From Escherichia phage teqhad, in sequence record NC_054933.1: 64,000 nt of DNA, one strand, 5' to 3'. Position 1 is the stretch's first letter; every line of letters begins with the position of its first letter. The notes under the pieces are model-generated. The model ran no database searches, had not been told where the DNA came from, and saw only the letters and a list, made by a program, of their open reading frames with translations. This document shows positions 1,202 to 28,688 of this stretch, piece by piece. Made by a program: the position numbers and the translations under genes.

Positions 1202-1656
1202 TAATATGCCTGCAAAACAAATTTAAAGTTATCAGCCAACATACGGTTCATTTCTTCAAGTGTTTGATACTCAGAATGATGATTACGAGTAAACGCCAAA
1301 GCTAACTGACCTTTTCCAAATCCTGTCGTCAGAGGTTTCATCTTAGAAGCAGGCAGATAAAATACTGTGTATACCATATTGTTATTTGCAATAGTACGCG
1401 CAAGTTGAGACCGGCGTTGACGAATATGACTTAAAACCGCACTAAATCCTTGCTTAGAACGCTGATTACCTACATAAAATCGTGCAGATACGCATGGATT
1501 ACTAAATGGACCACCGAGTTTACTCACTAAAAAGTAAAATCCAGGTTTAGATAAAATATCTTTATGCGGAGTTCCCAAAAACCATTCACCACCCTTGATT
1601 GTACCAATAACAGTTGCGCCTGCATTATTCAGATCAGTAACAGTCATATATTTCAT
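1201..1656 (-). CDS. ndd: Ndd-like nucleoid disruption protein (151 aa)
   Basis: ORF 1201..1704 in track; preferred start is the internal ATG at 1656 with GAGGAAA SD (MKYMTVTDL...); size and position fit T4 ndd. Confidence 0.6.
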
Positions 1657-19694: not shown

Positions 19695-20036
19695 TCAATC
19701 ACAAGATGTAGATGAACAACTAGAATCACAAGAACTTCCGCATGAATCACCTGCCCATACATGAACAGGAACATTAGTATCATATGAATCAGAACTAGAC
19801 TGTGTATTCTGTGTGTTAGATGATGTAGTAGGTACTGACCAGCGCCAAGGATTTTTATAATATTCTTGGGCTTCTTCATAAGTCATAGTAACTGCTTCTA
19901 CTGTTCCATCTCCCATATAAACATATTCAACTACAGTTAAAGGGAGATAGTCATTTGAAATAGGAACTACACCTTCCCCAGGAGTTGTAGAGAAAAAATC
20001 CGTAAAGAAACTTTTAAACCAATTAAAGATAAACAT
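19695..20036 (-). CDS. hypothetical protein with Cys/Ser-rich C-terminal tail (113 aa)
   Basis: C-terminus ...[19 protein letters not shown]. Confidence 0.5.
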
Positions 20037-20242
20037 TACAAAAAGCCTCTTTTGAATTCAACTTGTTTATCGCCATAATCATATCGAATCTCTGCATTAA
20101 ATTCGACAGAGCCATCTGCGTACATCATAAATGAATGCACAACAACTTCTGTAGACCATGGTTGTAGTTCATATTTCTTCATTACATGCCGTGAAATGAT
20201 AATATCTAAATCTTCATTTGGTTTAATCCAGCGATTTAACAT
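20036..20242 (-). CDS. hypothetical protein (68 aa)
   Basis: Track ORF; GAGGAG SD; early promoter upstream. Confidence 0.5.
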   Translation of the reverse strand: MLNRWIKPNEDLDIIISRHVMKKYELQPWSTEVVVHSFMMYADGSVEFNAEIRYDYGDKQVEFKRGFL

Positions 20243-20266
20243 AGTGCTCTCCTCTATAAGATAATT

Positions 20267-20298
20267 CTATTATACCATACTCATTGTGGAAAGTAAAC
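20267..20298 (-). promoter_or_regulatory. T4-type early promoter
   Basis: Minus strand GTTTACTTTCCACAATGAGTATGGTATAAT. Confidence 0.55.
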
Positions 20299-20303
20299 CG
20301 GTA

Positions 20304-20335
20304 AAATGAAAAAGGACTCCCGAAGGAGTCCTTGA
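20304..20335 (-). terminator. intrinsic terminator (GGACUCC-UUCG-GGAGUCC plus U-tract) downstream of soc
   Basis: Minus-strand RNA AAGGACUCCUUCGGGAGUCCUUUUUCAUUUU. Confidence 0.6.
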
Positions 20336-20339
20336 ATTA

Positions 20340-20576
20340 TTAACCACCTATTTCTGTTGGCGTAAACATTGCAGCATTCTTAGTTTTCCAGTCAGCTGCA
20401 TCAGAAACTACAGTAGAATATGCCGCCTTTTCAGAAGGAAAGGTCTGATAATGAGAATCTGCAATACGATGCTCGTTAGAATAGATTTCAAACGGAACAG
20501 AAACTTCCATACCTTTAACTTCTTTGCCTTCACCCGCTGGATGAGTAAAGGTCTTGATGTTAACGAAACCACCCAT
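20340..20576 (-). CDS. soc: small outer capsid protein Soc (78 aa)
   Basis: ...VNIKTF...HYQTFPSEKAAYSTV... matches the remembered T4 Soc; late promoter upstream. Confidence 0.8.
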   Translation of the reverse strand: MGGFVNIKTFTHPAGEGKEVKGMEVSVPFEIYSNEHRIADSHYQTFPSEKAAYSTVVSDAADWKTKNAAMFTPTEIGG

Positions 20577-20607
20577 AATAAACTCCTTTATTGTTTAATT
20601 ACAGGTG

Positions 20608-20615
20608 TATTTATA
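20608..20615 (-). promoter_or_regulatory. late promoter TATAAATA upstream of soc
   Basis: Plus-strand tatttata, i.e. TATAAATA on the coding strand about 30 nt upstream of the soc ATG. Confidence 0.6.
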
Positions 20616-20785
20616 TCAGTCTTCAATGAAAACTTGTGCCAGGAATTCGTGTTCATCTTGAATTTGTTTATATAAAGCCATTACAGCATTTATATTAGAG
20701 CTATCTACTTTAAGTTGATAAGCATACCACTCGTGTAAATTAATTAAAGCTTTTTGACGTCTAATAAATTCTTCTTTGGATATTT

Positions 20786-20986
20786 TCATTTTGAATGCTC
20801 TATAATTAATTTTAAGGCTTTTTCACTGACAAAAATTTCATCAGGACCTTCTTCTACAACCCAATCAACCGTACGAAGCTGATTAGATAAGAGCTCACAT
20901 ACGAGCTCCTTGTCATAATCTTTAAATAGCTGGTCAATACGTTTCTTGCGGGCTTTCTTAAGCTGGCGTTTATTTAAACGAGCCAT
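20786..20986 (-). CDS. hypothetical basic protein (66 aa)
   Basis: Track ORF; its start codon overlaps the gene 56 stop. Confidence 0.45.
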   Translation of the reverse strand: MARLNKRQLKKARKKRIDQLFKDYDKELVCELLSNQLRTVDWVVEEGPDEIFVSEKALKLIIEHSK

Positions 20987-21504
20987 TAATAGCCTCTGTC
21001 TTGACGAGCGAAATTTTCAGCATTTTTCAGATAATAAAGTTTAAAGATTTCTTCAGCTGACATTCCAAGAGCAATGAATTTATTCATGAAAAAGTGAAAT
21101 TGATCAATCAGTTCAAATTTAATTTCAAGTTGATCTTCAGGAGATAAATCTTGAATTTTCTTGGATTGCATTTCAGCATAACGTTTCTTCCAAGGTTTCC
21201 ATACAGCAGAAGCTTCTTTTTCACCATTACTCATACCACCAAGAGAAGTATATAGCTCGCGAGTTTCGTCTGCGATATAATCGTCTTGGTTTCGCAACCA
21301 AGCAAGAACTTCTCCTGCGGTTTCAAGTGAATCAGGATGACGATTTGTTTCTGGTTTATCATTAGCCAAACGAATCTGTAAATGCCGCTGCATGTCAAGC
21401 ATAACTTGTAGTGGGTCAATATTGTGCATAATATTCTCAGCATATGCACGATTTGCTTTATCAACACCTTCGATCAAATGAGCACATTCATTAAAGTGAG
21501 CCAT
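20986..21504 (-). CDS. 56: dCTP pyrophosphatase gp56 (MazG-like, 172 aa)
   Basis: MAHFNECAHLIEGVDKANRAYAENIMHNIDPLQ...; the ATG at 21504 has AAGGAAA SD, so the longer track ORF is an N-terminal over-extension. Confidence 0.85.
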   Translation of the reverse strand: MAHFNECAHLIEGVDKANRAYAENIMHNIDPLQVMLDMQRHLQIRLANDKPETNRHPDSLETAGEVLAWLRNQDDYIADETRELYTSLGGMSNGEKEASAVWKPWKKRYAEMQSKKIQDLSPEDQLEIKFELIDQFHFFMNKFIALGMSAEEIFKLYYLKNAENFARQDRGY

Positions 21505-21575
21505 TATTTTTCCTTTCAATTCATGGGTTAGTAGATTAATTATACAATAAATATATAAAGCAATAAGGAGGACAT

Positions 21576-21776
21576 ATGGTACAAAAATTAATGGCACTTG
21601 TTAATGCCATCAAAGGTAATAAAAAGCGTATAGCTTTTACTATTTCTGCTATGGTAGGAATTTTACTCTGGAACTTTATTTTATCACCTGTTGCAATTGC
21701 ACATGGTATTAATATTCCAGTAGTTACTCTTGATACATTCGTAGATTTAGCATTTGCTTTAGTTGGGTTAATTTAA
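21576..21776 (+). CDS. small membrane protein on the plus strand (66 aa, two predicted TM segments)
   Basis: AAGGAGG SD 4 nt before the ATG; hydrophobic; convergent with gene 61. Confidence 0.45.
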   Translation: MVQKLMALVNAIKGNKKRIAFTISAMVGILLWNFILSPVAIAHGINIPVVTLDTFVDLAFALVGLI

Positions 21777-22801
21777 ATCTTAGCATATTTAGATAGCCGC
21801 ATTTTAGCCATCAACCCCTGGGCAATATTATTTTTCATATATTCCATAATTTGTTCAGGGGTTGCACCTTCCTTTCTAATCATATCATTAACATCTTTTG
21901 ATTTCCAGGGAGATTTATCCCAAAACATAACCCTTTCTCCTGCATCAACCAATTTAGTCATTCGTTTAATAGTGTCAGGGTGACGAGGTTCATTATCTAA
22001 AACCCACACACGTCTATCTTTAAATGGAACAACTTCTAGGTCTAATTGACCACCCGTAATAGCTATACCATTTTCAATAAAAAGTGAATCTATAGGTCCT
22101 TCTAGAACATATACATCACCATCTTTAACTCGTTCGACTCCATATATTTTTGTTGCCTCAGGATAAGCTTTAATGGTGATATATTTTTGAGGAGCATCTT
22201 TCTTTAATGCACGTCCTTGAAAAGACTCAGCTTTTCCGTTAGCATTATAAATTGGAATAACAAGACGAGGCTCAGGTATTTCCTTTTTATATGTTCCCGG
22301 TGCTATGCTATTAACCAATTTAGGCCATTCGGTTGTAAACCAAAGATATTTCCATTTATCCTTTGGAATACAACGAGCTTTTACATATTTTATAATTGGA
22401 TGGTCTTCCGCCAGTTTATCTAATCTAATACATGACGGAAGAAATTTAATTATTTTCTTCTCGGGTTGTTTAGGAAGTTCTTTAGGTTTTTCTACTGGAC
22501 GACTTTTACCTTTTTCTTTTCTTATTTCAAAGATATACTCACGATATAAATCAGGTTCAAACTCCTTTAAATATATTCCGATTGGTGCATGATAGTTACA
22601 GTTATAACAATGAATATTTCCTTCATTATTATCACCATAATACCATCCACGAGCTTTATTCTGGTCGGTTTTTGAATCTCCACAAACAGGGCATCTAAAC
22701 CGCAATTTAAAAGTTGAACTATTATTTACTTGTGTGAATTTAGGTAAATGAGCTAATGCACGGTATGCAAATTCATTATCAATCCAAGGTATTGATGACA
22801 T
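21773..22801 (-). CDS. 61: DNA primase gp61 (342 aa)
   Basis: Zn-ribbon CPVCGDS...CYNC plus TOPRIM region; 342 aa as T4 gp61. Confidence 0.9.
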   Translation of the reverse strand: MSSIPWIDNEFAYRALAHLPKFTQVNNSSTFKLRFRCPVCGDSKTDQNKARGWYYGDNNEGNIHCYNCNYHAPIGIYLKEFEPDLYREYIFEIRKEKGKSRPVEKPKELPKQPEKKIIKFLPSCIRLDKLAEDHPIIKYVKARCIPKDKWKYLWFTTEWPKLVNSIAPGTYKKEIPEPRLVIPIYNANGKAESFQGRALKKDAPQKYITIKAYPEATKIYGVERVKDGDVYVLEGPIDSLFIENGIAITGGQLDLEVVPFKDRRVWVLDNEPRHPDTIKRMTKLVDAGERVMFWDKSPWKSKDVNDMIRKEGATPEQIMEYMKNNIAQGLMAKMRLSKYAKI

Positions 22802-22803
22802 TT

Positions 22804-22968
22804 TTACTCTTCTTTTTCTTTAGATTCCTCTTTTTTCTTTTTAGGAATCTGTTCAGGACCTTTATTTACTACAGCGCCTGATGTTGTTCCAGTAGAGATA
22901 TTTTCAGGACTACCACCTGAATCTCCAGCGACCATATCTTCTTTGATAAATTCTTTATATGTTTTCAT
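22804..22968 (-). CDS. small hydrophilic protein (54 aa)
   Basis: Hand-translated MKTYKEFIKEDMVAGDSGGSPENISTG...; its start lies inside repeat copy 1. Confidence 0.35.
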   Translation of the reverse strand: MKTYKEFIKEDMVAGDSGGSPENISTGTTSGAVVNKGPEQIPKKKKEESKEKEE

Positions 22969-22969
22969 A

Positions 22970-23326
22970 TTAACCTCTATTCATAAAAGCATTAAAAATT
23001 TGGTCATCAATAGATAGTGCAGTAATATTTTCTGCATCATTTAGCAAATCATTAATTTCATCAGATAGCATAACACATGTACCTTTATTTCCTGTAATTG
23101 TTACTGCGCAATTACGAACGTTTTCTTTATTAAATTTTAGGTTAATATTTTCGTAATGAAAATCCTTTAATGCTGAATATATTTTTAAAATAAAATTGTC
23201 TTTTACTACAATAAACCCAACCTCACTATTAAAACGTGGTTCATGGAAACTGTAATAAACCTTTTCATCTATAAAATCGTATGAAATTTTTTCCATTTTT
23301 AAATATGAAAATTCAGAACTATACAT
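22970..23326 (-). CDS. 61.1-like hypothetical protein (118 aa); paralog of the C-terminal half of the next gene
   Basis: Ends ...SIDDQIFNAFMNRG; GFIVVKDNFILKIY aligns to GGIFVKDNRITRIIY in 23328..23954. Confidence 0.55.
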   Translation of the reverse strand: MYSSEFSYLKMEKISYDFIDEKVYYSFHEPRFNSEVGFIVVKDNFILKIYSALKDFHYENINLKFNKENVRNCAVTITGNKGTCVMLSDEINDLLNDAENITALSIDDQIFNAFMNRG

Positions 23327-23327
23327 A

Positions 23328-23954
23328 TTAATCTCTATTCATAAAAGCATTAAAAATTTGGTCATCAATAGAAACATTTACTTTAGACTGTTTTTCAGAT
23401 GGCAATTCATATCCACATATTACAATTTTATGATCAATATCAAAATACACAGAAGCAATATGATTAATGCTGTTTTCAGTAAAGTCTAAATCAACATCAA
23501 TATCTTTTTGACCAAAGCCCAAAGGATAAATAATGCGAGTAATTCGATTATCTTTAACAAATATTCCACCGACATACTCTGTGCTGCGTTTAAAGTCTAC
23601 ACGCCGACGAAATGAAAAATATTCAGGCTCTTTATGAGCTCGGCTCATAGGGCACAACGAATAACTAGAATAAGAGATGTCAAATCCTACGCCTTCAATA
23701 TGAACTAAATTGTCATGATTAAACCAATTATAATCATATGCCAAGTCCATTAGATTGTCATATGTGAAAGGCACCGGATTAACATCATTGGTCACAAGCA
23801 TATAATTAGCAACTGCTATAATTTCATTATTTTTAACGAATACAAACCGTGATTGATGCGAATGACCTGGACCCGCGTTTTCACGATTAATGATATAACA
23901 CTGGGCACCTTTATATTTGTATGTATCTTTGCACTTGTGCATTTGATAGAGCAT
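23328..23954 (-). CDS. 61.2-like hypothetical protein (208 aa)
   Basis: Ends ...SIDDQIFNAFMNRD; AGGTGA SD. Confidence 0.55.
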   Translation of the reverse strand: MLYQMHKCKDTYKYKGAQCYIINRENAGPGHSHQSRFVFVKNNEIIAVANYMLVTNDVNPVPFTYDNLMDLAYDYNWFNHDNLVHIEGVGFDISYSSYSLCPMSRAHKEPEYFSFRRRVDFKRSTEYVGGIFVKDNRITRIIYPLGFGQKDIDVDLDFTENSINHIASVYFDIDHKIVICGYELPSEKQSKVNVSIDDQIFNAFMNRD

Positions 23955-24247
23955 TATTCACCTACCACTTCAGCGATGATATTTTTATTATTAAAGTTTT
24001 TATCGCAATACAGAACATAATTATACTGCATTACACCACCAGACTTAAGCTGTTTTTGCACTTCGGCTTTCATTTCAGGACGATCGCGCTCAACGATATT
24101 CATAATATCTGCTTCAATTTGGGTTTCAACCTCAGTCTGATCAGCAGTCATAGACCATTCGCACAAATCTTTATCATAACCTGCCATAGCAGGCTGAGCA
24201 GCACAAGAAGCTAAAGCAAAAATTGCAGCAAAGATAAATTTTTTCAT
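23954..24247 (-). CDS. sp: Spackle-like periplasmic protein (97 aa, signal peptide)
   Basis: Signal peptide MKKFIFAAIFALASCAAQPAMA; 97 aa as T4 sp; position between 61.2 and 61.4. Confidence 0.6.
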   Translation of the reverse strand: MKKFIFAAIFALASCAAQPAMAGYDKDLCEWSMTADQTEVETQIEADIMNIVERDRPEMKAEVQKQLKSGGVMQYNYVLYCDKNFNNKNIIAEVVGE

Positions 24248-24305
24248 GATAATCTCCTCAGTAGTTTATGTTTATAATATCTCAATTTCCAATAAAAGTA
24301 AACAG

Positions 24306-24563
24306 TTATTTTAAAACTTCTGCATAATCACATGTTACAAACTGTTTCTCTAGCTTGACGATTTTACGAAAATACCTTTTGCATTGACGAATCTGCCGCT
24401 TCGTAGGGCGAACAGCAAACTTAATAAATTCCACTCGACCAAATGGAGGGCTTTCTTCTGCTGGAATATCTAACACCAATTCCCACGTATCTGCAATAAG
24501 TGCTTTGAATTGCGTATTTTTCCTGGCGTTATACGGAGTAGGTTTAAATAAAACAATATGCAT
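24306..24563 (-). CDS. 61.4-like small protein (85 aa) adjacent to dmd
   Basis: GAGGAT SD; TAATG coupling to dmd. Confidence 0.5.
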   Translation of the reverse strand: MHIVLFKPTPYNARKNTQFKALIADTWELVLDIPAEESPPFGRVEFIKFAVRPTKRQIRQCKRYFRKIVKLEKQFVTCDYAEVLK

Positions 24564-24564
24564 A

Positions 24565-24747
24565 TTATCCTCGGCAATCTACTTCACATACTTTCTTGTC
24601 ATCAATGAAAGCTTTAACTAATGCTTTATTAACTTCAGCATATTGAGTAGTAGCCCATTGAACGTCATCTTTCATCATTGTGATTTCTTTAGTAAACATG
24701 CTTTCATTCTTAAACCACCCCATAAAAACTACCTTTACCAATTCCAT
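24565..24747 (-). CDS. dmd: Dmd (60 aa)
   Basis: MELVKVVFMGWFKNESMFTKEITMMKDDVQWATTQYAEVNKALVKAFIDDKKVCEVDCRG matches my memory of T4 Dmd; the track ORF is extended 5 codons at the N-terminus. Confidence 0.75.
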   Translation of the reverse strand: MELVKVVFMGWFKNESMFTKEITMMKDDVQWATTQYAEVNKALVKAFIDDKKVCEVDCRG

Positions 24748-24774
24748 AACAATCTCCCCCATTTAACCAACAAG

Positions 24775-24807
24775 ACTACTATACCATAGTCTTGTCAGCT
24801 TGTAAAC
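24775..24807 (-). promoter_or_regulatory. T4-type early promoter upstream of dmd
   Basis: Minus strand GTTTACAAGCTGACAAGACTATGGTATAGT. Confidence 0.5.
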
Positions 24808-26234
24808 TAAAATTTTAATTCATTTGCCAAAGCATCTAACTGGGCTCGAGTGGATTCATTTCTTTGATAGCGATTCTGCTCAGCCTGAATCTGTTGTGAA
24901 CCTGCTACTTCGTTCACTTCAGTTGGAGTAGAATCTTGCTCAATTTCTACCCATTTCTGATTTCCTTTTTGAACACCCATCAAAAACTTATTCCATTTAT
25001 TCTTATCGCCATATCGTGATTTGATTTGCTTAATGAGTTGTTGTTCAGCAGCTGCTAACTCCTCGGTTTCAATGACCGCAAGCATAAAATCGGCTGTTGC
25101 TGGAAGACCGGCAGATTCTGCAATATCGCTCATGTTAACATCAGAAGAATCCCAAGCTTGTTTGCCGACCTGTGCTGCAGTCCAAAGAACAGTTTCGGTT
25201 TCAACAGCCAGAGCACGCAATTCCTCTGCAATAGCTTTAACAGTCGTGTAACTATTTTCTGAATAAACTCTAATGCGGCAAGATTTACAAATACCCAGAT
25301 AGTCAACAATAATGATTGTTGGAACAAAATTCTTCTTGAGCTTCAATTCGTTTAAAAGAGATCGAAATGTATTAGCGTCTGCTCCACCAGTAGGATACTG
25401 TTTAACGATTAAACGACCGAGAGTAGATTTCTCACGCCATTTTTCCATTTTTCCTTTATACTCAGCGTAAGAAATATGCCCATCATCAATGTCATCAAGA
25501 GAAACATCAAGCATATTAGCATCAATACGTTTAGCACAGACTTCTTCTGCCATTTCCATGGAAATGTAAAGAACATTATGTCCAAGCTGCAAATAATCTG
25601 CTGCTAATGAACACAATCCTAATGACTTACCAACGTTAACGCCAGCCATTAAAACGTTCAGCGTTCCAGTCTCAGCTCCGCCTTTAGTAATTTTGTTTAG
25701 AATTCTGAGTTTAAATGGAACCTTACGAGCTTTATTCATATAAGATAGCCAACGTGCTTCGTAGTCATCCATCCAATCATGACCAACGTAGCTATCAAAT
25801 GAAATTGATAATGCTTGACGCATAATGTCAGGAATAGCACCAACATCCGGCATTTTCTTATTTCGTTTTTCCGGAGGAAGCTCAGCATTAGTTTGAATTT
25901 CGATTATTTTAGACGTAGCATTAAACATCGCCCTTTGCTGAACATATTTTTCTGTTTCTTTTATTAACCAACTGTGGTCTTCCGGAGAATCAGCCAGTTT
26001 TGAAATAAGTGTTTTTACACCAGAATATTCTGTTTCAGTAAATGAACTATTTTCTAATGCAACATTTAACGCATTAATAGATGGAACGCTATGATACTCA
26101 TTAACATGAGATTTAATTAATTTGAATGTATTTTTAGCTGGACCACTTTCAAAATATTCTGAATCCATATATGGCCAAACTTTTGAAAAATAAGCTTGAT
26201 CAAATATGAGATGAGAAAGAATAATTTCTACCAC
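24807..26234 (-). CDS. 41: replicative DNA helicase gp41 (DnaB-like, 475 aa)
   Basis: Walker A GVNVGKS; 475 aa; GTG start 5 nt after AAGGAG. Confidence 0.92.
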   Translation of the reverse strand: MVEIILSHLIFDQAYFSKVWPYMDSEYFESGPAKNTFKLIKSHVNEYHSVPSINALNVALENSSFTETEYSGVKTLISKLADSPEDHSWLIKETEKYVQQRAMFNATSKIIEIQTNAELPPEKRNKKMPDVGAIPDIMRQALSISFDSYVGHDWMDDYEARWLSYMNKARKVPFKLRILNKITKGGAETGTLNVLMAGVNVGKSLGLCSLAADYLQLGHNVLYISMEMAEEVCAKRIDANMLDVSLDDIDDGHISYAEYKGKMEKWREKSTLGRLIVKQYPTGGADANTFRSLLNELKLKKNFVPTIIIVDYLGICKSCRIRVYSENSYTTVKAIAEELRALAVETETVLWTAAQVGKQAWDSSDVNMSDIAESAGLPATADFMLAVIETEELAAAEQQLIKQIKSRYGDKNKWNKFLMGVQKGNQKWVEIEQDSTPTEVNEVAGSQQIQAEQNRYQRNESTRAQLDALANELKF

Positions 26235-26243
26235 ACTTACTCC

Positions 26244-26588
26244 TTAAAAGAATTTAAATTTTTTCTTTGACCTTTTATTAAATGCATCTTGCAGTTGCAT
26301 TGTAATACATTTTTCTACATGAGGAGCTAACTCAGCTTTTCTTTCTTGGTCAAGAACAGCAAAGTCCATTACAACCTTTCCATCAACCCAATCCAGTTTA
26401 GTTACATACACTATATGTGTAGAACCATCTTCTAGTTTAATGACAATCTCCTGGATAACATTTTCCATAGCGGATTTAATTATCTTAAGAGATTCATTAA
26501 AAAGACGTTCTTTTCTTTCTTCTTCCCCCTCCGAAGAGGGGGATTCATCGATAATTTCTAGATCTAAATCTAAATCATCTTTATTCAT
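26244..26588 (-). CDS. 40: gp40-like protein (114 aa)
   Basis: Track ORF 26244..26606; the ATG at 26588 overlaps the uvsX stop; size matches T4 gp40. Confidence 0.55.
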   Translation of the reverse strand: MNKDDLDLDLEIIDESPSSEGEEERKERLFNESLKIIKSAMENVIQEIVIKLEDGSTHIVYVTKLDWVDGKVVMDFAVLDQERKAELAPHVEKCITMQLQDAFNKRSKKKFKFF

Positions 26589-27762
26589 TAAATTCTTCCA
26601 TATCACTTAACTGTTCGAGGTCAGTTTCTAAATCAGCTGCTGATTTACTTTTACTTTCTGGAGATTTAAATTTTTCAACCTTTGAGTTAATCAATTCATC
26701 AACTTCAGCTTCAACAATTTCATTACTATCAATAGCACCTAACTGATAAGCACGTTTAATAGCATCTCGGAATGGTTGATGTTTAAATAAAGGACCCCAG
26801 AATGTAGTGCAGTTGGTATCTTTTGCACGCCAAGATTTTTCTTCACGAATCATCTCGCCGGTTTCTTCATCAAGAAATTCACGAGCATACCAGCCATTTT
26901 TAGGTTTTACCACGAATCCTAATTCTAGAGCCATATCTAACAATCCAGAATAAGGATCAATACCACCGTCAAATTTAACATCAATAAAGAATTTACTTTT
27001 TTCTTTAACGGTACGAGATTTTTCTACATTTAGAACAAATTGATACCCCTGAAGATCAGAACCATCTTTAATCTGACGTTTACCGATAATGAATACAGTA
27101 TCAGCCGAATACATTACGCCTGTACCACCTGTCATCACGGTTTTACTAAACATTTCAATTGTTTCAATTGTATGGTTAACCGCAACACATGGAATATTTT
27201 TAATGCTAAAATAAGGAGTAACAATACGGAATAATGACTTCAGTGATTTAGCACGAGTCATATCTGCCACAGATTTTTCATTCAAGGCATCTTCAGTTTC
27301 TTTCTTAGAAGCCATATTACCAATTGAGTCGATGAATACTATAACTTTTTCACCACGCTCAATAGCTTCAAGCTGATTCACCATATCAATTTTCAGCTGT
27401 TCAACTGACTGAATTGGCGTATGAATTACTCGTTCCGGGTCAACTCCCATGGATCGCAAATAAGCTGGAGTAATACCAAATTCACTATCATAGAATAGAC
27501 AAACCGCGTCAGGATATTTGTTCAAATATGCCGCAACCATAGTCAAAGACATATTTGATTTAAAGTGTTTAGAAGGACCTGCAAAAATAGTTAAACCAGA
27601 CTGCATGCCGCCATCAATCGCACCAGAAATAGCAATATTAAGCATTGGAATTTTTGTACGAATTACATCCTTTTCATTAAAGAATTTAGATGTAGTCAGT
27701 TCAGCAGTCATTTTAGAAGTGGAAGCTTTAATCAAACGGGATTTTAAATCTACAATAGACAT
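26581..27762 (-). CDS. uvsX: UvsX recombinase (RecA-like, 393 aa)
   Basis: Walker A GPSKHFKS and RecA fold motifs; acidic C-terminus. Confidence 0.92.
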   Translation of the reverse strand: MSIVDLKSRLIKASTSKMTAELTTSKFFNEKDVIRTKIPMLNIAISGAIDGGMQSGLTIFAGPSKHFKSNMSLTMVAAYLNKYPDAVCLFYDSEFGITPAYLRSMGVDPERVIHTPIQSVEQLKIDMVNQLEAIERGEKVIVFIDSIGNMASKKETEDALNEKSVADMTRAKSLKSLFRIVTPYFSIKNIPCVAVNHTIETIEMFSKTVMTGGTGVMYSADTVFIIGKRQIKDGSDLQGYQFVLNVEKSRTVKEKSKFFIDVKFDGGIDPYSGLLDMALELGFVVKPKNGWYAREFLDEETGEMIREEKSWRAKDTNCTTFWGPLFKHQPFRDAIKRAYQLGAIDSNEIVEAEVDELINSKVEKFKSPESKSKSAADLETDLEQLSDMEEFNE

Positions 27763-27839
27763 TCATTTTTTCCATAGGCATCATTATATTTTCCTCACTG
27801 GTTAAAGATAGAGTAATTATAACACAATAAATTTAGGCA

Positions 27840-28688
27840 TTAATCAACTGCTATTGGATGAATAGCATTAAACTTATGAAATGCTTCTGATTTTTCTTTA
27901 CGTGAAACGCACATGCGAAGAACCTTTAATGGTTCGTCTTCTTCACCCAACGATTTTCGTTTTTCAATATTAGAAGTTTTCCAACGAGCTTGCTCTGGAA
28001 ACTCTCTATTAATCTGCTCAAGCGCTCTATTATGTTTAGAATTACTACGAATTGAACTGCACCCGCCAGGAGCTTGTGCTTTTCCAGATACAACTAGATA
28101 TTTGAACAAGGCCAAATGCGGATAACCTTGATTAATTAAATTGAGAAATGCATACATATCTTCGCATAAATCAATTTTTCCATACCCAATTTGTTCTGTC
28201 GTAAGTTTTCCGAGGTCATACCATGTATTCGTGAATCCATATGAATTTTCACGATAATTACCCCAAGATGAAGTAATTTTAAAAATAGGTAGACGAGCAT
28301 GGCCATGATAATACCCGCAATCCATGGCATCCTCAACATATTGAATCAATTCATAGAACTGTTCACGAGTCAATTGATTGACTTTATCTACGCAACGACG
28401 ATCATCTCTTTTTCGCATTGAACTCATACGAATAGTAGTATCATCGTCAATCATCCAGATTCGTTGACCTGCATACATATCGGTAATTGCTTTACGAGTA
28501 CCGGCAATTCCGTTTACATCATCAGGAATAGTTATAATTTTAGCTCTAGACCCATAAGCGTCATGATAAGCTTTTTCTTCATGTTCACGCACTACAATAT
28601 GCGGTTCATAATCAGTCGGAAACATATCAAGGGCAGAAACTGCCCCGACACGTTGATAACTTGGAATTACGAATTGAATCATTTCCAC
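27840..28688 (-). CDS. putative DNA glycosyltransferase (282 aa) at the beta-gt position
   Basis: Lies between uvsX and 42; has a hydrophobic DDD motif (IWMIDDDTTI) and does not resemble the 351 aa T4 beta-gt that I recall. Confidence 0.5.
   Translation of the reverse strand: MEMIQFVIPSYQRVGAVSALDMFPTDYEPHIVVREHEEKAYHDAYGSRAKIITIPDDVNGIAGTRKAITDMYAGQRIWMIDDDTTIRMSSMRKRDDRRCVDKVNQLTREQFYELIQYVEDAMDCGYYHGHARLPIFKITSSWGNYRENSYGFTNTWYDLGKLTTEQIGYGKIDLCEDMYAFLNLINQGYPHLALFKYLVVSGKAQAPGGCSSIRSNSKHNRALEQINREFPEQARWKTSNIEKRKSLGEEDEPLKVLRMCVSRKEKSEAFHKFNAIHPIAVD

Follow-up and report, generated by a model that had tools for sequence, protein, structure and literature searches.

A T4-like early gene block with dmd, tifA, spackle and adfA between replication genes 41 and 61 of Escherichia phage teqhad

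Gene content of the 41–61 interval

The window analysed here is a stretch of 64,000 nucleotides from Escherichia phage teqhad (NC_054933.1), and its ORF map places all genes of the 41–61 interval on the minus strand. The replication gene 41 (24807..26234), which ends in a TAG stop codon at 24809..24807, is followed by dmd (24565..24747, 60 aa; 61.5 in T4), tifA (24306..24563, 85 aa; 61.4 in T4), sp or spackle (23954..24247, a 97-aa precursor; 61.3 in T4), adfA (23328..23954, 208 aa; 61.2 in T4), a paralogue of the AdfA family referred to here as orf118 (22970..23326, 118 aa), 61.1 (22804..22968, 54 aa) and the replication gene 61 (21773..22801). The three ORFs that a first-pass annotation had placed here, as dmd, an adjacent 85-aa gene and spackle, are all present at these positions and on the minus strand. 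With the exception of orf118, the gene map is exactly that of T4 (NC_000866); the gene order is common to T4, T2, KMB23 and slur03, and the complete order dmd-tifA-sp-adfA is also found in T4, KMB23 and slur03, T2 being without a full-length adfA. A total of 629 phage records match the locus stretch and the nearest public records to a 12 kb stretch are Tequatrovirus phages at ~97% identity, while no public record is identical over the locus, the best reaching 97.8%. The window is a segment of a T4-like phage (Tequatrovirus), in which replication genes 41 and 61 flank the usual block of early genes.

The assignment of the 60-aa ORF to Dmd, made in the first-pass annotation, is borne out by pairwise comparison with T4 Dmd (60/60 residues identical), by the Pfam family Dmd (PF17587; E=1.6e-46, 156.9 bits against a cut-off of 27) and by PDB entry 5hy3_B, 'Antitoxin Dmd', which is matched over residues 1–60; the protein also belongs to PHROG 2102. 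Inactivating changes were looked for in dmd, and its product shows zero differences from that of T4. The gene, located directly downstream of gene 41 and behind a promoter-like site identical to that of T4, starts at the T4-equivalent ATG, with a GGAG Shine–Dalgarno sequence 6 nt ahead. Compared with T4, one extra G is present in the G-run just upstream of the Shine–Dalgarno core, and it brings an upstream ATG at 24762 into frame, so that the mechanically called ORF begins 5 codons earlier and gives a product of 65 aa. Among 501 phage records for the G-run region, the closest (five at 99.2%) are all 130 nt long over this region, where the window has 131 nt, and an exact search of IMG/VR returned no instance of the window's G-run string and five of the T4-type string. 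The extra G may be a homopolymer sequencing error; as it leaves GGAG at the same distance from the dmd ATG, its effect should be nil.

Comparison of the 85-aa tifA product with T4 gp61.4 (TifA) gave 83/85 identical residues (98%), so the similarity is present, the two changes being V13A and I83V; identity to T2 TifA is likewise 83/85, and V83 is common to both. The Pfam family DUF7279 is matched with E=2.5e-20 (72.6 bits against a cut-off of 24.5). Residues P53, T54, K55, R56 and R59 are retained, being invariant in the window, T4, T2 and RB69, and residue 41 is F, the weaker, T4-type allele. Homologues of TifA occur in 638 phage records, none of them 100% identical to the window allele (best 98.8%). 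A PDB sequence search with TifA found nothing. The fold expected for the protein is an N-terminal three-stranded sheet, a loop of ~20 aa and a C-terminal helix (PMC10853763), and a single-sequence AlphaFold model has strands at residues 4–8, 27–30 and 44–49 and a helix at 55–72, at a mean pLDDT of only 47.6, too low for the model to count as independent confirmation.

Spackle is identical to the T4 protein at 95/97 residues, the differences being T8A, which lies in the signal peptide, and K53E; the E53 allele is also found in T2, KMB23 and slur03. The protein matches Pfam T4_Spackle (PF25676; E=5.5e-45, 152.3 bits) and PDB entries 6x6o_A and 7cn6_A, the latter covering residues 23–97, and the signal peptide corresponds to the first 22 aa, which are missing from the 75-aa mature protein. 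A disulfide bond has been reported for mature Spackle, and its contacts with gp5 have been listed (PMC7677548); C29 and C81, and the gp5-contact residues S32–A35, Q37 and N76, are invariant. The adfA product is identical to T4 gp61.2 at 204/208 residues and matches Pfam AdfA, 'Anti-DarT factor A' (PF23813; E=4.7e-137, 454.6 bits); its His165 aligns with R164 of RB69 AdfA, and a PDB sequence search with AdfA found nothing.

The probability that these reading frames are open by chance, or are pseudogenes in decay, is negligible: the matches are full length, the products have T4 lengths at 98–100% identity, the Pfam E-values are strong, and starts, stops and ribosome-binding sites are intact. The Pfam matches and the identity to T4 together refute such a reading, the family matches of Dmd, TifA and Spackle being beyond chance. 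A search of the five proteins against NCBIfam returned nothing, hence no curated name; the plus-strand antisense ORFs under dmd, tifA and sp matched no Pfam family; and an Rfam scan of 20000..28000 gave a single chance-level snoRNA hit, far under its gathering score, with no structured RNA in the cluster.

The gene orf118 has no T4 counterpart and is the orthologue of a T2 gene annotated gp61.2; in T2, described as 'lacking adfA', this orthologue has been overlooked. Its product corresponds to the C-terminal half of AdfA (Pfam AdfA, residues 22–118, 33.5 bits against a cut-off of 27) and is 34% identical to the window AdfA (BLASTP, E=3e-9), with the last 13 residues identical bar one; an Asn is present where AdfA bears the specificity-determining His or Arg. 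The gene has a GC content of 25%, against 34% for the window. Its product belongs to PHROG 4122 and is found in 331 phage records, always as 'hypothetical protein', yet forms just five tight clusters in a large protein collection, so that the family is narrow. An AlphaFold model built on a shallow seven-row alignment reached a pLDDT of 60, and a Foldseek search of BFVD with this model returned its own family and a 212-aa protein (28% identity, rmsd >11 Å), with no functional lead. For orf118 as for adfA, one copy of a 49-nt direct repeat (22966..23014 and 23324..23372; 48/49 identical, 98%) includes the 3'-terminal codons, the stop codon and the ATG that follows; the copies lie 358 nt apart and bracket exactly one gene, orf118. 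Such a repeat is the kind of substrate by which T-even recombination gains and loses genes. The last codon (Gly or Asp) was considered as a trace of orf118 loss from T4 via this repeat and was rejected, since RB69 AdfA also ends in Gly, which makes the last-codon base uninformative on that loss.

Promoter-like sites and gene junctions

A promoter scan identified an early-type promoter for dmd-tifA at 24778..24807 on the minus strand, with 10/12 matches to the consensus. The site runs from 24806 to 24778 as TTTACA, a 17-nt spacer and TATAGT, the last extended by a TG ahead of it. It can also be read as starting with GTTTAC, the form of T4 early promoters, and in this reading its first base (24807) doubles as the final G of the TAG that ends gene 41. 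An A/T-rich stretch upstream of the promoter lies within the last codons of gene 41. The site is identical in T4, KMB23 and slur03, and the window and T4 share every base between the stop codon of gene 41 and a point just beyond the -10 hexamer. In T4, the dmd-tifA pair has an early promoter upstream of dmd (PMC9391042), and the identity of the two sequences suggests that the site would function in the same way in the present phage.

The first-pass annotation had proposed an early promoter for the whole cluster that overlaps the 3' end of gene 41. The shared G of the stop codon and the A/T stretch inside gene 41 mean that the overlap holds, if narrowly; service to the whole cluster is another matter, as this promoter is documented for dmd and tifA only. 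A second promoter-like site is located in the 58-nt spacer between tifA and sp (24274..24303, minus strand), where (G)TTTACT, 17 nt and TATTAT give 9/12 matches. Read from 24302 to 24274, it is conserved in T4, KMB23 and slur03 apart from one substitution and an indel of 2 bp close to the -10 region. By its match to the consensus, the second site is a probable promoter of sp and the genes downstream. Since sp has a promoter-like site of its own, the promoter on the gene 41 side is certain only for dmd-tifA.

The junctions between the genes are tight. The tifA ATG lies 1 nt past the dmd stop codon (TAA-T-ATG) and the GAGGA Shine–Dalgarno sequence of tifA is inside the end of dmd, so that the two genes look translationally coupled; promoter and terminator scans gave no match between dmd and tifA, and by analogy with T4 the pair most likely forms one transcription unit. 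The start of adfA overlaps the sp stop codon (TAATG), and each junction from sp through to gene 61 is an overlap or a gap of 1–2 nt. No intrinsic terminator was predicted in 22700..25000.

Predicted functions and the anti-toxin island

The identities of the genes can be read directly from the window, and the functions proposed for them here are carried over from experiments on the T4, T2, T6 and RB69 proteins. Our working hypothesis, which we consider very probable, is that the locus is a T4-like early block in which Dmd, TifA, Spackle and AdfA would act as they do in T4. The early promoter at the end of gene 41 would drive dmd and tifA together. Given its 100% identity to the protein of the published work, Dmd is predicted to be an antitoxin mimic that binds and inhibits the endoribonuclease toxins RnlA and LsoA (PMC3014915; PMC9391042), substituting for the short-lived antitoxins of these toxins, which would allow the middle and late mRNAs of T4 to survive.

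For the 85-aa gene, a link between T4 61.4 and inhibition of ToxN had been suggested with low confidence in the first-pass annotation, and this suggestion proves right, tifA being a tested ToxN inhibitor (PMC9391042; PMC10853763). When T4 was evolved on toxIN-carrying E. coli, segmental amplification of the two-gene dmd-61.4 locus resulted; the 61.4 protein was found to inhibit ToxN and to co-precipitate with it, and the gene was renamed tifA (Srikant 2022; PMC9391042). Subsequent work has shown that RNA is bound by TifA via a basic C-terminal helix with the cap P53-T54 (Guegler 2024; PMC10853763), that the P53A/T54A or K55A/R56A/R59A substitutions abolish RNA binding, ToxN binding and rescue alike (PMC10853763), and that TifA and the trapped ToxN are found in a large RNA–protein complex enriched in 16S rRNA (PMC10853763). 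By analogy, the window TifA would bind RNA and inhibit the type III toxin ToxN: the Pro-Thr-capped basic helix at its C terminus would contact the RNA, and TifA and RNA together would keep this endoribonuclease trapped in a ribonucleoprotein complex that is inactive.

The potency of TifA is set by residue 41, F41 (T4) being weak and F41S and F41H giving markedly better inhibition (PMC10853763), and the F41 of the window allele predicts a T4-like, moderate potency. One could argue from this that a single-copy F41 allele fails in practice against E. coli-type ToxIN, its target being some other ToxN variant or its role general RNA binding. The improvement brought by F41S and F41H fits such an argument, as does the strong restriction of T2, T4 and T6 by plasmid-borne toxIN despite near-identical TifA (PMC9391042), and several TifA homologues of other phages neutralize none of the toxins tested (PMC10853763). 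We nevertheless consider it quite unlikely, because T4 tifA knockouts suffer a ~100-fold loss in plating efficiency on chromosomal toxIN (PMC9391042), which indicates that the native T4-type allele works at natural toxin levels, and because T2, T4 and T6 TifA rescue ToxN toxicity when expressed (PMC10853763; PMC9391042). A single native copy of tifA suffices for T4 against chromosomal but not plasmid-borne toxIN (PMC9391042). With F41 as in T4, the window allele, acting as a ToxN inhibitor, should beat chromosomal-level but not plasmid-level toxIN unless amplified or mutated. Residue 13 lies in the N-terminal part of the protein, the β-sheet of which is predicted to face ToxN, so V13A could alter potency or specificity slightly.

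Spackle, made early and located in the periplasm, blocks superinfection by binding gp5 of incoming T-even phages at its lysozyme domain (PMC7677548). At 98% identity to the T4 protein, the window Spackle is predicted to inhibit the gp5 tail lysozyme of superinfecting T-even phages after export to the periplasm, and to act in superinfection exclusion. The first-pass annotation was correct as to the identity and position of spackle; the counter-defence role it had given the gene does not hold, since the target is the gp5 tail lysozyme and not host immunity (PMC7677548). The same annotation had described a compact counter-defence cluster, of which the anti-toxin part (dmd and tifA) stands, but its boundary was drawn one gene short, omitting adfA.

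By its family and its near-identity to T4 gp61.2, the window adfA is anti-DarT factor A, and by analogy a real third anti-toxin member of the block; AdfA would bind DarT ADP-ribosyltransferase toxins. A His at the position of RB69 R164 enables binding and neutralization of DarT1 (PMC11257639). At the native level in T4, however, adfA adds nothing measurable against DarTG1, AdfN (gp30.3) being the main factor (PMC11257639), which leaves the natural target of T4-type AdfA uncertain.

The dmd, tifA and adfA genes lie within 1.4 kb, in an order conserved in T4, KMB23 and slur03, and in this respect the locus resembles the region of dmd, tifA and adfA that has been called 'an anti-TA island', the other genes of which were held to be attractive anti-toxin candidates (PMC9391042). 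The block is not wholly directed against host defences, as sp targets superinfecting phage. A different view of the same correctly identified genes is that they form no functional island, the 41–61 interval being a permissive, early-transcribed slot for unrelated small accessory genes that turn over by recombination; the grouping of two or three anti-toxin genes would then be without mechanistic significance. The position of Spackle, which serves superinfection exclusion rather than an anti-toxin function, in the middle of the block would be in keeping with this, as would the variable content of the interval, RB69 having imm and imm.1 in the tifA–sp gap and two further ORFs in the gap between gene 41 and dmd, T2 being without adfA and T4 without orf118; the 49-nt repeat that brackets orf118 is likewise as expected for recombinational gain and loss. 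Yet three of the six short genes in this interval encode independently validated anti-TA inhibitors (Dmd, TifA and AdfA), and dmd and tifA remain neighbours even in RB69, with a TifA identity of only about 56–57%. We regard the accessory-slot view as possible but doubtful; it and the island view are not mutually exclusive.

It is unlikely, in our estimation, that orf118 encodes a fourth toxin inhibitor of the island, tuned, for example, to a different DarT variant. T2 turns DarTG1-sensitive without adfN, and it follows that its orf118 orthologue gives no native-level protection against DarTG1. The gene is nevertheless the loose end of the locus: it is AdfA-like, the published remark on anti-toxin candidates among the genes of this region applies to it (PMC9391042), and if it does inhibit a toxin, it would be the fourth member of the island.

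The genes, their functions, the operon structure and the idea of an anti-toxin island have all been published for T4 already (1996–2024), and near-identity to T4 makes the locus an ordinary one. Its value is predictive, for the annotation of host range: the phage is predicted to resist RnlAB, LsoAB and, at chromosomal expression levels, ToxIN, whereas high-copy ToxIN should restrict it, short of amplification of tifA or a change at residue 41.

Comparison with T4, T2 and RB69

The dmd-tifA-(sp)-adfA island of T4 has the same genes as the window, in the same order, on the same strand and with the same spacing (PMC9391042), and the identity between the encoded proteins is 100% for Dmd and 98% for each of TifA, Spackle and AdfA. 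T4 differs in having no 118-aa AdfA-family gene between adfA and 61.1. Relative to T4, the window shows V13A and I83V in TifA, the extra G in the G-run upstream of dmd and a 2-bp deletion in the -10 region of the promoter-like site of sp.

The adjacency of tifA and dmd has been noted in T2, T4, T6 and RB69 (PMC9391042). The 41–61 interval of T2 likewise contains dmd, tifA and sp, and T2 gp61.2 is the orthologue of the window orf118; however, T2 is without a full-length adfA, whereas adfA and orf118 are both present in the window, and the C terminus of T2 Spackle differs from that of the window protein. In RB69, too, dmd adjoins tifA, and sp is followed by adfA, but tifA and sp are separated by imm and imm.1, and gene 41 and dmd by two extra ORFs. 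The TifA of RB69, about 56–57% identical, is shorter, carries H41 and is a stronger inhibitor of ToxN (PMC10853763), and the RB69 AdfA carries R164, the allele that does not neutralize DarT1, where the window protein has His (PMC11257639).

An AdfA-family gene bracketed by a direct repeat

Adjoining the anti-DarT factor A gene adfA (T4 61.2; 23328..23954, minus strand) lies a gene of 118 codons, orf118 (22970..23326, minus strand), whose product belongs to the AdfA family, matches the C-terminal half of AdfA and is 34% identical to the neighbouring AdfA. The gene is lacking in T4, yet the T2 gene product called 'gp61.2' is its orthologue, and it was found in 331 phage records. Its GC content is 25%, as against 34% for the window. 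A direct repeat of 49 nt, the two copies of which (22966..23014 and 23324..23372) are identical at 48 of 49 positions, takes in the 3' end of each gene, orf118 as well as adfA, and the start codon that follows it. With 358 nt from one copy to the next, the pair brackets exactly one gene, and it is plausible that the repeat is a substrate for recombination by which orf118 is gained or lost, T4 being without it.

At the position of His165, the specificity-determining residue of AdfA, the orf118 product has Asn. AdfA itself differs from the T4 protein by I162S, L62P, P190S and G208D, the first of these lying three residues ahead of His165.

Gene 61.1 (22804..22968, minus strand) encodes a protein of 54 aa that is also similar to the C-terminal 46 positions of the 156-aa PHROG family phrog_2086 (E=2.3e-16), which suggests that a longer protein has in gp61.1 a short relative or a remnant. 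The RB69 gene annotated gp61.1 is longer, at 279 bp (L005, the RB69 sequence, 1318..1596).

Changes upstream of dmd and sp

Upstream of dmd, the gene of the RnlA/LsoA antitoxin mimic, the stretch at about 24751..24762 (minus strand) has one G more in its G-run (ATGGGGGAG) than T4 has (ATGAGGAG). The extra G brings an upstream ATG (24762) into the dmd reading frame, so that the mechanical ORF is 65 aa long. The spacing from the Shine-Dalgarno core to the dmd ATG is the same as without it. Of 501 phage records that match here, the closest lack the extra G, and IMG/VR, searched for exact matches, returned none for the string that contains it; a sequencing error in the homopolymer may be the cause.

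In the spacer between tifA (T4 61.4, ToxN inhibitor) and sp (spackle, superinfection exclusion), a promoter-like site (24274..24303, minus strand) differs from T4 and KMB23 by a 2-bp deletion, common to the window and slur03, and a C-to-T change, which jointly convert the -10-like hexamer TACTAT to TATTAT. This might raise transcription of sp and adfA.

Variability between genes 41 and 61

The interval between replication genes 41 and 61 is a variable slot for accessory genes. RB69 has two additional ORFs between gene 41 and dmd, and carries the superinfection-immunity genes imm and imm.1 between tifA and sp (L005 3012..3690), so that in RB69 both superinfection-exclusion functions stand side by side.
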